Virus record (IMG/VR): IMGVR_UViG_3300007511_000003
Span: 104,901 to 168,900 of that record
Reading direction: 5' to 3' (one strand)
From: a virus
Length of the DNA: 64,000 nucleotides
Positions 3,572 to 14,400 of this stretch are shown piece after piece. Numbering within the stretch: position 1 is the first letter of the stretch; each line of letters begins with the position of its first letter. The position numbers and the translations under genes are program-made. The notes below the pieces were generated by a model. The model had not been told where the DNA came from and searched no databases. It saw only the letters and a program-made list of their open reading frames with translations.

Positions 3572-5136
3572 AATTCGGCTCCTTCAAAAGCACGTTGCAT
3601 ACTGCTAACCGAACTCATCATACGCAACAAGGGTTGTGGTGTGCGAACACCAATCGACCGGAAATGCTGAATCATGATCGATGGGTCAATGTAGTTTTGT
3701 ATGGCCGTGTCTGGAGTGAGCTTATCCCCACTGTAATGGCCCAACGCCTTTGCTACCTTCATCAGCAACAAACGAAATTCTTGTAGGGCCTCCTTTTGGG
3801 AAGGCGGGACCCCTTGTCTATGGTACCTGCTACCCTTCAATACCTGTTCCGCCAAAAGAGTACCGCGGAGGGTGCGTAACTTGTGGATGGTAACAGGACT
3901 TCCGATCCCTTTGAAATAAGCGTTCACCACGGTAGCAGAGACATGGGCTCCTGATGGTCCGCGAAACACCAAGTCATCTGGTTCCAGACCTTCTGTCAGG
4001 ATCTTGAGCAAAGCCATTACCTTGCGGCTCCATTTGGTGTCCGGAATAATAGCATGCTTATGAGAAATACCGTCCTTGCCCTTATAATGCAGTACCGCAG
4101 TGTTTCCCTTAAGCTGGATATGTTTGGCCCTCAGCGTGGACAAACCATAGGTACTCTGTCCTTTGGTCGAAGAACCAGGGGTCCCTATACGACCCTGTGT
4201 AAGGTAAGCAATTTCCACCAGCAAAGCCGGAATCTGCTTCTTGGAGCCATCCGACATCAGGTCACGGCGCCATTTCTTGAGAAGGGCTTCGATACCTTTG
4301 ACCAGCTTAGCCACCTTGGCAAACTTTTCCTTGGTACGGGCCTTGTGGTACTTTTCGGTATAGTAATACTTGAACTTGGTCCCTTTTGGAGGCTGACCTT
4401 TAAACACCCAAGTGTCATCAGATTTGGGGTCATACTTAGGGTTCATTTCGATCGTACCAGCAGGAACCCCATTAATCTTTTGTCGTGCCTTGGTATACAG
4501 GCCACCGTCTTCCCCAACAAATCCGGTAAACCCCTCTGGTATCTTGACCGCCACCCCTTCTTGGGACGCAGCGGTCCTTACATCAGAGGCATCCAAGATT
4601 GGTTTACCGCTACTCCGAATGTGGTTAAGTAACCACTCTTTTGGTGTGCTCGGTGGGTCCTCATGGACAAAAAGCTTATTGATATGGGGGTCTTTCAATA
4701 CACCTATGTTCTTATGAAACCGCTTGTAGGCGGCAGGGCTAGGCTTGGCAGACAGGACGGAAAAGTCTTTCAGGAGAGCAAAATATTCCTCTGGAATTGA
4801 GTCCTCAGTGGCTCCGTATATATTAGGAAATTTGACCTTCAGGATGGAACCCAAAGCGAGTAGGGCCTTGCTTTCATCCGAGGCGGTGCCACCCTGCTCT
4901 AGCTTATCTACAACCTTGCGTAGAGGCGGGACTTTGATACCGAATTGGGTGAGGAAGTCCTCAGCTTGGGCAAAGAGCTGGTTCAAACGTACCCTTTGCT
5001 GGACCTGTAAGGGCCTTCCAGACTTGACAGAATAGATGATATATGCAAGGGTGCGAAAGAAGGAAAGGACGGCTTCAGGGGTTAAATCCACCTGTAACGC
5101 GATCTCTACATTGGCAAGAACCCGCAACTCTTTCAT
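3568..5136 (-). CDS. DNA topoisomerase IB with N-terminal extension
   Basis: TopIB motifs in order: GRIG, YGLSTL, YKGKDG, HKLRT, ALGH, NYID (catalytic R-K-R-H-Y). Confidence 0.9.
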   Translation of the reverse strand: MKELRVLANVEIALQVDLTPEAVLSFFRTLAYIIYSVKSGRPLQVQQRVRLNQLFAQAEDFLTQFGIKVPPLRKVVDKLEQGGTASDESKALLALGSILKVKFPNIYGATEDSIPEEYFALLKDFSVLSAKPSPAAYKRFHKNIGVLKDPHINKLFVHEDPPSTPKEWLLNHIRSSGKPILDASDVRTAASQEGVAVKIPEGFTGFVGEDGGLYTKARQKINGVPAGTIEMNPKYDPKSDDTWVFKGQPPKGTKFKYYYTEKYHKARTKEKFAKVAKLVKGIEALLKKWRRDLMSDGSKKQIPALLVEIAYLTQGRIGTPGSSTKGQSTYGLSTLRAKHIQLKGNTAVLHYKGKDGISHKHAIIPDTKWSRKVMALLKILTEGLEPDDLVFRGPSGAHVSATVVNAYFKGIGSPVTIHKLRTLRGTLLAEQVLKGSRYHRQGVPPSQKEALQEFRLLLMKVAKALGHYSGDKLTPDTAIQNYIDPSIMIQHFRSIGVRTPQPLLRMMSSVSSMQRAFEGAEL

Positions 5137-7167: not shown

Positions 7168-7818
7168 ATGAAATTATTGACAGACGGGACAGATATAGTG
7201 GAAAAAGGAAGGATAAGGGTCATAGGGCATGACCCAGGATCACGTAATTATGCCTACTCAGTGGTGGATGCTCGTGTGTGGGGGCACCTATTCCAGTACA
7301 AGGTACGCAAGTGTGGCATCATAGAAAAGGCAATACCTGCCCTTAAAGATGACCTCAAGGAGGGTACCGTTCAATTTATTAAAGAGGTAGATGGTATAAT
7401 AGGAGACTTTAAACCTGTCAACTATTTCATCGCAGAGCGGTTCGTGAGTAGGGGGCTGCGTGGAGATATTGGGGAACGTGCCAATATCATGCTAGGCATC
7501 GCGCTAGCACTCACCACCAGAAAAAAGGTAGGTGTGGTGGAGACCCCCATGATTACCGCCTCCACCTGGAAGAACAGGACGAAAAAGATTTTGGACCTAA
7601 AAGAGTTATACAAGCAATGTCGGGTGCCACCACATGAGGTAGACGCTACGTTAATTGCCTTGTTTATAGCGTGCCAGCATTTTAAAATTAAACCCTATTC
7701 CTTCTTCAAGTCGGTAAAACATGTCCGAAAGTTTGTAGACAGGGTGGAGTCGGCTACAACCAGCAAACACCGCAACATACGACCAAAAAAATCTTTTGAC
7801 CAATGTTTTGTCCATTAA
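7168..7818 (+). CDS. RuvC-like Holliday junction resolvase
   Basis: GHDPG (D), FIAERF (E), ASTWK and HEVDA (D) motifs of the RNase H-fold RuvC family. Confidence 0.8.
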   Translation: MKLLTDGTDIVEKGRIRVIGHDPGSRNYAYSVVDARVWGHLFQYKVRKCGIIEKAIPALKDDLKEGTVQFIKEVDGIIGDFKPVNYFIAERFVSRGLRGDIGERANIMLGIALALTTRKKVGVVETPMITASTWKNRTKKILDLKELYKQCRVPPHEVDATLIALFIACQHFKIKPYSFFKSVKHVRKFVDRVESATTSKHRNIRPKKSFDQCFVH

Positions 7819-8267
7819 TAGGGAACCGGTTGGCAGAGTGCCAACCATCATGTATGTGGCAATCCAACTCTGGGTGCCTGCACTCGGAGGACGAGATACC
7901 AGATAAAATTCTGGCCAAGGCTAAGGGAATACCAGTACAAGAGGTAAAAAGGAGGAGGGAGGAGGGTGTGCGCAAAATCCACATCCTGATCATGTTACAC
8001 CATTACCTAGAATACACGGCTAACAGGGCGGGACCCGCCCTGAACCCCTTGCAAGAGAGTTTACATATAAGGTATCCGTACAACCTACCAGACATTAAGG
8101 GGAAGCTAGGGTACGTCCTACCCGCAACCAACAAAAATTTATTTAGGTCCTTTTTAAATGATACGAAGGCCCGACGAAGGTTTCCATTAAAAACCGTATT
8201 ACACCTATCTGCCAAGGAGTTACACCGACTCCGACGCCACCACAAGGAGAACGAAACTGATGGATAA
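7803..8267 (+). CDS. Hypothetical protein, Cys-rich N-terminus
   Basis: 154-aa ORF overlapping both neighbours. Confidence 0.6.
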   Translation: MFCPLIGNRLAECQPSCMWQSNSGCLHSEDEIPDKILAKAKGIPVQEVKRRREEGVRKIHILIMLHHYLEYTANRAGPALNPLQESLHIRYPYNLPDIKGKLGYVLPATNKNLFRSFLNDTKARRRFPLKTVLHLSAKELHRLRRHHKENETDG

Positions 8268-11734: not shown

Positions 11735-11822
11735 TGGAGCCAGGAACAGGATTCGAACCTGCGTTGGGTTTTCGCCGTCGGCTTACAAAGCCGCTCCTCT
11801 CGGCCGCTGGAGGGACCCTGGC
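11735..11822 (-). tRNA. tRNA-Thr(UGU), atypical, 15-nt variable arm
   Basis: GCCAGGG/TCCTGGC acceptor, U73, CCA, D stem CCTC/GAGG, anticodon loop TTTGTAA, T arm GCAGG-TTCGAAT-CCTGT. Confidence 0.75.
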
Positions 11823-11845: not shown

Positions 11846-11919
11846 TGGACCTGCGTTTGGGTAGAACCAACAACCTAAGGCTTAACAGGCCCTCACTTTA
11901 CCAACCAAACTACTGTGGA
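11846..11919 (-). pseudogene. Degenerate or chimeric tRNA-Asn(GUU)
   Basis: 5' TCCACAGTAGTT..., anticodon arm AGGGC-CTGTTAA-GCCTT, ends in CCA, but the T loop is degenerate and acceptor strands do not pair. Confidence 0.6.
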
Positions 11920-11925
11920 TTAAGA

Positions 11926-12034
11926 TGGCACGTAGTAGGAATCGAACCTACGATTCTCGCTTAAACGGTTGATCAGTCCGCTATCGGCGAGCACAGACTC
12001 TGCCTGCGCGTTTACCACTCCGCCATACGTGCCA
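11926..12034 (-). ncRNA. tRNA-like RNA with collapsed anticodon arm and ~40-nt extra arm
   Basis: Acceptor-like TGGCACGTA/TACGTGCCA, D arm GCG-GAGTGGTAAA-CGC, T arm GTAGG-TTCGATT-CCTAC; middle CAGGC-AGA-GTCTG plus CTCGC...GCGAG arm. Confidence 0.7.
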
Positions 12035-12042
12035 CAAAGAAA

Positions 12043-12297
12043 ATATGGTGTGCTATTACGCCAAAGAGGAGTTCACCCTTACCATCTCTGGGGTGGCTTA
12101 CTACTTCACCAAGTGGCGCCCGTCGCCTATCCCTCATAGCAGGTGGTCCTGCAGAGCTCTTTATTTGGATGCCGCCACCCAAACGTTAGCCTAGAGGTTT
12201 CCCTGGTTCATGCCCTTGCAATCCAGGTACGTACTACAACTAACGGCCTTTGCCTCACTCTTTAAAGGATGGCTGCTTCTAAGCCAACCTCCCATAC
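12043..12297 (-). ncRNA. 23S rRNA GTPase-associated-centre (H43/H44) mimic RNA with ~195-nt structured insert
   Basis: GGAGGTTGGCTTAGAAGCAGCCATCCTTTAAAGAGTG...GCGTAATAGCACAC matches 23S nt ~1055-1104 (E. coli numbering, recalled from memory); closed by GTATGG/CCATAT. Confidence 0.85.
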
Positions 12298-12309
12298 CTT
12301 ATAGTATAT

Positions 12310-14312: not shown

Positions 14313-14400
14313 TGGTAGGGCTGGAGGGAGTTGAACCCACGGTAGGTCGCCCTACGTCGGTTTTCAAGACCGGTACCTTTAACCACTCGGCCACCCTTCC
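14313..14400 (-). tRNA. tRNA-Ser(UGA) body with non-matching 3' acceptor strand (chimeric or pseudo)
   Basis: GGAAGGG...CTTGAAA loop and long V arm GTAGG-GCGA-CCTAC, but the 3' strand is CAGCCCT-A-CCA. Confidence 0.7.

Follow-up and report, generated by a model that had tools for sequence, protein, structure and literature searches.

In a 64,000-nt stretch of viral DNA (IMG/VR record IMGVR_UViG_3300007511_000003, positions 104,901 to 168,900; below called the window and numbered from its first letter), a predicted 257-nt noncoding RNA (ncRNA) gene lies at 12042-12298 on the minus strand, measured from closing stem to closing stem. Its two ends read as a near-exact copy of the GTPase-associated centre (GAC) of 23S rRNA, helices 43 and 44 (H43/H44), and we refer to it as the GAC-mimic. 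The same RNA device was found in at least 153 distinct IMG/VR members after de-duplication and in six cultured phages, and it is an RNA-level element under strong purifying selection. The source record is a 168.9-kb fragment, estimated to be 65% complete, of an uncultured marine myovirus-type phage (it has tail sheath, baseplate and topoisomerase II genes), in which the GAC-mimic is single-copy.

The likeness to rRNA was assessed against an E. coli rrl gene (L138; L numbers are our labels for individual sequences and loci) and a true 23S sequence of Paenibacillus (L006). The minus-strand sequence is GGAGGTTGGCTTAGAAGCAGCCATCCTTTAAAGAGTG at 12292-12256 and GCGTAATAGCACAC at 12061-12048. An earlier reading of the window, made from the letters without database searches (the sequence-only reading), had given these halves exactly, and the match counts it had given, 33/37 for the 5' half and 13/14 for the 3' half (1091-1104), hold against the retrieved E. 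coli gene. When 12062-12256 is taken out, the leftover 66 nt align gap-free with 23S 1055-1104 and native H44 is restored. The joined core is identical to E. coli 23S at 45/50 positions and to Paenibacillus 23S at 47/50, where the sole changes are at 1058:1080, a compensatory one (U-A to G-C), and at 1101 (U to A). That G-C pair and the presence of A1067 (12280) and A1095 (12057) had been called correctly, as had the pairing of the outer ends, which extends over 7 bp (GGUAUGG with CCAUAUU). The parts of the RNA are listed here with the corresponding 23S positions.

12042..12298, minus strand: whole GAC-mimic RNA gene; model R1 gives 96.9 bits over 12042-12298
12292..12298, minus strand: closing stem, 5' strand GGUAUGG (equivalent to the top of H42, 1049-1055); pairs with 12042-12048
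12266..12290, minus strand: H43 copy (1057-1081) with the 1067 loop, A1067 at 12280; identical to E. coli except for the compensated 1058:1080
12257..12265, minus strand: junction UUAAA (1082-1086) and lower H44 5' strand GAGU (1087-1090); 1082:1086 covaries
12066..12256, minus strand: 191-nt variable arm, class 1, between U1090 and G1091; no Rfam match
12256-12253 with 12069-12066, minus strand: arm basal helix GAGG/CCUC; covaries at 4/4 pairs
12075..12097, minus strand: class-1 module, with a GCC/GGU helix, ACC/UAAG internal loop and CCA-GAGA-UGG hairpin with GNRA tetraloop
12062..12065, minus strand: UUUG linker from arm to G1091; conserved across the family
12049..12061, minus strand: upper H44 hairpin with the 1095 loop, and lower H44 3' strand (1091-1103); 13/14 E. 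coli identity over 1091-1104
12042..12048, minus strand: closing stem, 3' strand CCAUAUU (1104-1110); 7-bp pairing with GGUAUGG
11927..12032, minus strand: tRNA-like downstream neighbour; RF00005 43.7 bits, 9 nt past the closing stem

The H43 copy at 12266-12290 carries the UUAGAAGC 1067 loop, and at 12052-12061 the H44 hairpin retains G1091-C1100, C1092-G1099 and a GUAAUA loop that includes A1095. Infernal aligned the 5' half to LSU_rRNA_bacteria positions 1094-1147 with a score of 21.8 bits and an E-value of 1.8e-4 when 901 nt were searched. No Rfam 15 family reached its gathering score over the GAC-mimic, and no rRNA gene did so within the 64-kb window; at permissive E-values, the window and six relatives returned just tRNAs and sub-threshold large-subunit (LSU) matches to the 5' half. 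The element is not part of a 23S rRNA gene, as there is no complete LSU rRNA or rrn operon, its flanks are tRNAs and phage open reading frames (ORFs), and its H44 is interrupted by 195 nt, unlike the uninterrupted H44 of 23S rRNA. It is, as the sequence-only reading had it, a stand-alone RNA gene co-oriented with its tRNA cluster. Minimum-free-energy folding gave z = -1.2, which is uninformative by itself. The training set of model R1 included the window; the copy in Xanthomonas phage XacN1, outside that set, scores 86.6 bits.

A trivial explanation would be a chimeric assembly with bacterial 23S, the refutation that the sequence-only reading had anticipated, or a decaying captured rRNA fragment. 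Among public sequencing runs, no RNA data set was listed as containing the stretch. It is present in four DNA runs of one marine metagenome study, and in all four the Logan contigs break inside the 37-nt word (12256-12292) shared with bacterial 23S, with no single contig bridging it. Depth inside the word jumps to 2,400-15,000x, compared with about 40x for the phage, because the identical 37-mer occurs in the 23S genes of bacteria that are abundant in those samples. Even so, the word contains an overlap between the two phage contigs, and their depths match in 4/4 runs (41/38, 48/47, 6.6/8.2 and 6.9/7.4), and sequences from opposite sides of the break pair with each other as the 7-bp closing stem. 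The same architecture, with compensatory changes, also recurs in more than 150 independent contigs and six cultured phages. The chance of an artefact is, in our estimate, negligible: the GAC-mimic is neither rRNA debris nor an assembly chimera. Family members are probably under-assembled in metagenomes, since de Bruijn assemblies break at the 23S-identical word.

IMG/VR pattern scans gave 13, at least 120 and 99 stretches. The cultured carriers, identified by BLASTN, are Pseudomonas phages Astolliot, UNO-G1W1, Milchi and pf16, Aeromonas phage 4_4572 and XacN1; their copies are unannotated or lie under small 'hypothetical' ORFs, mostly between co-oriented tRNA genes. Family samples came from marine, freshwater, soil, groundwater and gut sources, and many contigs are large (among the 80 listed from one IMG/VR scan, 26 are at least 100 kb, with a maximum of 518 kb). 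The gene itself ranges from about 110 to 440 nt. Among unique matches to a 5'-half pattern, 66/66 have the 3' half downstream, each half being examined in the set found via the other; the window's RNA likewise has both halves and its own covarying stem. Homologues retaining both halves around variable inserts, for which the sequence-only reading had suggested a search, thus exist in large numbers and covary, and the characterised Rfam family that might have removed the novelty did not appear.

Several matches were discarded. That in Paenibacillus phage Pd_22F (L006, MZ092003.1, ~82.5-85.5 kb) is plain uninterrupted 23S, the 'phage' records OR845016, OR850018, CAKLQF020000045 and CAKLQH020000072 hold ordinary uninterrupted 23S rather than the mimic, and matches in some Staphylococcus and Acinetobacter 'phage' records are also plain 23S sequence. 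The 23S in such records is either host contamination or packaged host DNA. A scan of genome contigs, with a pattern limited to short arms, gave four true members, all on small contigs of metagenome-assembled genomes, and six chance matches, and says little about prophages. Model R1 scores true 23S at 47-63 bits and is therefore unusable for surveying cellular genomes.

Alignment A1, consisting of 36 short members and the window, was used to examine the GAC secondary structure together with the arm basal helix. In it, 93.1% of cells are paired, compared with 70.9% in column shuffles (0/500), and the covariation score is 0.575 against 0.137, with partner-slid controls at 0.09-0.16. Fifteen of the 24 pairs changed on both sides, 1082:1086 among them. 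All 7/7 pairs of the window's closing stem changed on both sides across the 36 members, and in a set of 84 members each position shows all four Watson-Crick types. This stem is mostly 5-14 bp long (mode 9), and its variable length rules out a fixed 7-bp acceptor-stem-like closing stem.

The same 84 members show which positions of the core may vary and which may not. Position 1058:1080 occurs as U-A, G-C, A-U and C-G, 1057:1081 as A-U and C-G, and 1082:1086 as UA in 49, CG in 25 and AU in 9. U1060, A1088, A1069, C1072, A1077, A1084, A1085 and G1087 are invariant (84/84), G1071 is kept in 83 and A1067 in 76. The loop at 1093-1098 retains GUA..A, and GCGUA..AGCACAC is almost invariant in the set found via the 5' half. 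The variable positions 1058, 1080, 1082, 1086 and 1097 are lower-case in the Rfam bacterial LSU consensus and the invariant ones upper-case; the domain is therefore held to the same constraints as the native site, and this applies to the exposed A1067 and A1095 as well. The window has the covarying 1082:1086, the conserved U1060-A1088 pair, and G1071, C1072 and A1084/A1085, which we take to be tertiary-contact nucleotides of the GAC fold. The U1060-A1088 pair is contacted by Gly130-Thr131 of uL11, and the 1067 and 1095 loops together with the uL11 N-terminal domain form the thiostrepton cleft (PMC2175356).

Positions 1087-1090 are GAGU or GAAU in all copies, even in gammaproteobacterial phages, whereas E. 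coli 23S has GAAA, which means that the core was not copied recently from the host gene. The H42-equivalent stem has no conserved sequence and no constant length, and therefore the uL10 site is not copied; binding of uL10, which the sequence-only reading had entertained, is unlikely for a part that is a freely covarying stem. Nine members (L026, L058, L069, L097, L098, L101, L123, L131 and L133) carry a second insertion, in the H43 3' strand right after A1077.

All arms in the family sit between U1090 and G1091 and consist of a helix followed by the conserved UUUR linker. Their lengths are 28-338 nt including the linker, some being plain hairpins of ~24 nt (for example L029). In the set found via the 5' half, 0/66 members are armless, and the four bases before G1091 are UUUG in 52, UUUA in 9 and other in 5. 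The basal helix covaries at 4/4 pairs, with GAGG/CCUC in the window and GGGA/UCCC, GGGG/CCCC, GAGA/UCUC or GAAG/CUUC elsewhere. Position 1101 is A in 82 of the 84 members (12051 in the window) compared with U in bacteria, which gives a U1090-A1101 pair beside the junction. Judged from these alignments, the interruption at 1090|1091 appears to be a constitutive, family-defining junction and the insert a built-in variable arm. The sequence-only reading had described the GAC as split by an insert; it located that insert correctly, but the split looks neither accidental nor intron-like, given the universal basal helix and UUUR linker. Alternative partners for the UUUG linker, either AAAG or C1102/A1103, were also considered, and variants give no support for them.

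In the alternative of an intervening sequence, the arm would be removed by group I self-splicing or RNase III excision to leave a 66-nt or two-piece mini-GAC with native H44. The exact colinearity of the core with 23S once 12062-12256 is removed suits this, and the boundaries U|...G| are as in group I introns (GAGU|G ... UUUG|GCG), a feature that is necessary but not sufficient. However, there were no matches to Intron_gpI (RF00028) or ribozymes at E up to 10 for the window and up to 5 for six relatives. The 5' end of the arm pairs, with covariation, with its own 3' end, and therefore there is no P1 or internal guide sequence for the 5' exon. Arms as short as 28 nt with the linker are far below any self-splicing intron, the universal presence of the arm is unlike mobile introns, and the UUUR linker and A1101 have the look of features adapted to a junction that stays in place. 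We regard excision of the arm as very improbable.

The window's arm belongs to the commonest class, class 1 (32/99 in one set), which is a three-way junction of the basal helix, a variable helix or domain and a conserved 3' module. In this module, 97.6% of cells are paired, compared with 88.4% in shuffles (0/500; 47 members); compensated pairs include GC, UA, AU and CG in mid-helix and GU, GC, AU, UA and CG at the loop-closing position, and the ACC/UAAG internal loop is invariant. The minimal class-1 arm is 61 nt (L125). Aligned locally with the E. coli rrn operon, the module did not outscore shuffles, and 69 pattern matches outside the GAC context resemble chance matches in coding DNA. For the class-1 junction, hammerhead, HDV-like, K-turn, bulged-G and UAA/GAN readings were compared by eye and none fits.

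In the window, the variable arm domain is ~150 nt and contains the hairpins that the sequence-only reading had listed. Five of the seven insert helices it proposed appear in thermodynamic folds, but AAAGAG/CTCTTT and CACCC/GGGTG are wrong. In the former, AAAG belongs to the GAC (1084-1087) and UUUG makes up the conserved linker, and the basal helix is instead GAGG/CCUC; the latter is replaced by the family-supported GCC/GGU and CCA-GAGA-UGG. Its CCUGG/CCAGG helix has a compensated counterpart, CCAUG/CAUGG, in L016. The larger class-1 arms (window 12190-12230 minus; L016, L045 and L072) share an extra hairpin with the loop (G)RAAGGGCAU, whose stem is compensated between members (CCUGG/CCAGG, CCAUG/CAUGG, GGUUGG/CCAACU), as well as a GGGUGGC-containing hairpin.

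Other arms differ in content. Two of the 153 unique members, L064 (~7742-8117, minus strand) and L085 (~3691-4065, minus strand), are ~380 nt long and have a hairpin, GGUACGAGAGGAA or AGUACGGGAGGAA (AGUA-GNRA-GA(A/C), bulged-G). With its bulged-G motif and GNRA-type loop, this hairpin resembles the sarcin-ricin loop. A sarcin-ricin mimic in the window's arm (UAGUACGUACC) was rejected, as it is without the GAGA-GGA part. The XacN1 arm is of another class (…CCCUUAGAGCAUUUG), common to jumbo-phage contigs of 358 kb and 378 kb (L092 and L044).

A tRNA lies within 500 nt at 78 of 141 unique loci and within 100 nt at 66 of them, and all 196/196 nearby tRNAs are on the same strand as the GAC-mimic. 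Flanking co-oriented tRNAs lie at a median distance of 7 nt on the upstream side and 11 nt on the downstream side. The window conforms to this context, as it is a phage genome with a co-oriented tRNA-like gene 9 nt downstream. This spacing is that of tRNA arrays, and the ends of the RNA would be made by tRNA-processing enzymes. Across the family loci, the neighbouring tRNA has no preferred identity. When 2,293 flanking ORFs were compared all against all by BLASTP, no protein neighbour proved to be conserved: no cluster extends beyond 7/141 loci, and the largest ones are TerD, CCA-adding enzyme, UDG and similar. The ORFs neighbouring the window's copy have no Pfam matches. No gene for uL11, an EF-Tu-type GTPase, RelA/SpoT or a (p)ppGpp-related function was found in the 168.9-kb record, and no uL11 gene in five complete carrier phage genomes. 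With no uL11 gene and no conserved protein neighbour, any protein partner is therefore host-encoded or unlinked.

The GAC-mimic is embedded in polycistronic arrays of tRNAs and ORFs, and no promoter-like or terminator-like site belonging to it was seen near the window's copy, as would be expected of a cis-acting element, that is, a processing, stability or regulatory signal of the tRNA/ORF transcript such as a sensor of free ribosomal protein. On the other hand, no downstream gene or tRNA identity is constant, and the self-closing stem and tRNA-like spacing on both sides are as for a released RNA. Ribosomal-protein operon leaders, moreover, mimic rRNA loosely, not at 90% identity or above. A cis-acting role is accordingly given little credence here.

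The surroundings of individual copies can be described further. All tRNA-like genes of the 168.9-kb record lie within one 2.7-kb stretch around the GAC-mimic. The downstream neighbour at 11927-12032 (minus) is 106 nt long, with normal acceptor stem, D arm and T arm, and has 49 nt folding into two hairpins in place of the anticodon/variable region; it was not called by ARAGORN. Beyond it, 11855-11912 (minus) matches tRNA weakly (24.7 bits) and has an Asn-like CUGUUAA loop but no acceptor stem, and 11735-11822 (minus) is an 88-nt tRNA-Thr(UGU) with a long variable region. An 82-nt tRNA at 14316-14397 (minus; 33.7 bits) was missed by ARAGORN. The XacN1 copy (L005 831-1790) starts ~20 nt past the stop of an annotated 2'-5' RNA ligase gene, and a terminator-like GC hairpin and U run lie downstream of it. 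In four loci (L037 8677-10140 minus and three related), a CCA-adding enzyme/poly(A) polymerase-family gene with an HD domain lies ~100 nt downstream.

The reading we prefer, at about an even chance, is that the GAC-mimic is an RNA freed by tRNA processing that binds host uL11 and, away from the ribosome, stands in for the factor-binding site as a decoy. It would be co-transcribed with the tRNAs and excised by RNase P and tRNA 3'-processing enzymes, the RNase P cut at the 5' end of the downstream tRNA-like gene producing the 3' end of the mimic. Once released, the RNA would fold as the native 58-nt domain and capture host uL11; we propose host uL11 because no phage uL11 was found and the U1060-A1088 pair, read by the C-terminal domain of uL11, is invariant. 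The resulting off-ribosome ribonucleoprotein would display the A1067/A1095 cleft and compete with ribosomes for a ligand acting at the GAC. The likeliest ligand would be a host toxin, defence or stress factor aimed at this centre, and the decoy would parallel phage tRNAs that offset attacks on host tRNAs. The variable arm may add lineage-specific surfaces, such as the class-1 GNRA module here and the sarcin-ricin-like hairpin in the rare relatives. A more specific version has the uL11-loaded decoy act in one of two ways, by neutralising a host toxin or immune effector directed at the ribosome or by blocking stringent signalling that depends on RelA; we rate it at slightly below even. The sequence-only reading had put forward titration of uL11, translational GTPases or RelA, or decoying of defence enzymes, as possible roles. 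Toxins aimed at the loop that the GAC-mimic keeps do exist, since Tre23 ADP-ribosylates H44 around 1095-1098 and impairs the GTPase activity of EF-G (PMC8661411).

The same structural evidence, including the invariant U1060-A1088 determinant, would also fit an RNA that is simply a sponge for uL11, withdrawing exchangeable uL11 from the pool and from ribosomes. Ribosomes poor in uL11 would fail to activate RelA, and a long infection would proceed with a relaxed phenotype in which translation is not shut down by the stringent response. uL11 is required for RelA activation, and the record offers no phage RelA/SpoT-family or (p)ppGpp-related gene to do the job otherwise. However, a sponge needs no exposed A1067 and A1095 loops; these are not read by the uL11 RNA-binding domain and are conserved all the same, which argues for more than uL11 sequestration. 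A sponge also leaves the conserved arm modules and the L064/L085 hairpins unexplained, and would have to strip uL11 from existing ribosomes within one infection. We consider this explanation rather unlikely.

Attention can instead be placed on the arm, with the GAC core merely a stable, protein-protected platform or a tether to ribosome or uL11, and arm modules that bind other targets. The arm is present in every member, and arm classes have their own conserved, covarying modules, with class 1, at 32/99, having its invariant ACC/UAAG loop and a GNRA hairpin, and a module that is not seen outside the GAC-mimic context. In contrast, plain ~24-nt hairpins such as that of L029 leave little room for a separate function, and across all classes no arm comes near the core in conservation. 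A mere scaffold is, in our judgement, unlikely.

Several considerations weigh against the decoy we favour. It would have to compete with ~10^4 or more ribosomes per cell, and needs a high copy number or a scarce target. The arm leaves H44 beside the 1095 loop and could alter or block access of a factor or toxin, and since the uL10 site in H42 is unconserved, the full stalk cannot form. The sole known GAC-directed toxin is an interbacterial type VI secretion system (T6SS) effector rather than a phage-defence effector, and the class-specific conserved modules may mean that the function is in the arm and not in the GAC core. In addition, our search patterns inflate the conservation of 1091-1104 and partly that of 1062-1076, although each half was cross-checked in the set found via the other half.

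We found no earlier description of a viral gene for a near-exact, self-contained copy of the ribosomal site of uL11, thiostrepton and EF-G, and this copy is conserved in more than 150 contigs of unrelated large phages across varied habitats. If it is active off the ribosome, it would point to an unrecognised host activity aimed at the GAC or to phage manipulation of uL11-dependent signalling. Such a role would extend the idea of phage tRNA arrays as translation-protecting islands and, alongside phage tRNAs, would reveal a further, so far unrecognised level at which phage and host contend for the translation apparatus. The system is tractable, since at least six cultured phage-host pairs (Pseudomonas, Aeromonas and Xanthomonas) carry a member and few RNA-protein complexes are as well characterised as that of the 58-nt GAC with uL11. 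The universal arm at 1090|1091, with its UUUR linker, is also a natural experiment in engineering a classic RNA fold.

No description of this RNA family was found in the searchable literature and no Rfam 15 family matches it; as far as could be found, the GAC-mimic is a new kind of phage RNA. Structured phage RNAs of unassigned function beside tRNA genes include GOLLD, ROOL and T4 species 1 and 2. The GAC-mimic shares their tRNA-side setting but is unrelated in sequence and structure (the window and six relatives gave no match to the GOLLD and ROOL Rfam families), and to our knowledge none of these RNAs copies a functional centre of rRNA. Ribosomal-protein operon leaders (L10, L1), which are cis-regulatory 5' untranslated regions with loose rRNA mimicry, are alike in that an off-ribosome RNA imitates a protein-binding site of rRNA. 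Unlike them, the GAC-mimic is near-identical to rRNA, looks released and is without an associated ribosomal-protein gene; none adjoins it, either among the window's neighbours, which lack Pfam matches, or as a conserved neighbour over the 141 loci. 6S RNA is a mimic of the open promoter, and phage pseudo-ToxI antitoxin RNAs are mimics as well; here the logic is shared only as proposed, an RNA imitating the natural target of a protein and titrating it, and both target and fold differ. Tre23, itself a T6SS interbacterial effector, targets the loop that the GAC-mimic keeps (PMC8661411). With the native bacterial GAC (the top of H42, H43 and H44; E. coli 1051-1108, including the 58-nt uL11/thiostrepton domain), the GAC-mimic shares the helices, the 1082:1086 covariation and the invariant tertiary and loop nucleotides. 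Unlike the native GAC, it is a separate gene in phage tRNA arrays, closed by its own freely covarying stem, always with an arm and UUUR linker at U1090|G1091, and with A1101 where bacteria have U.

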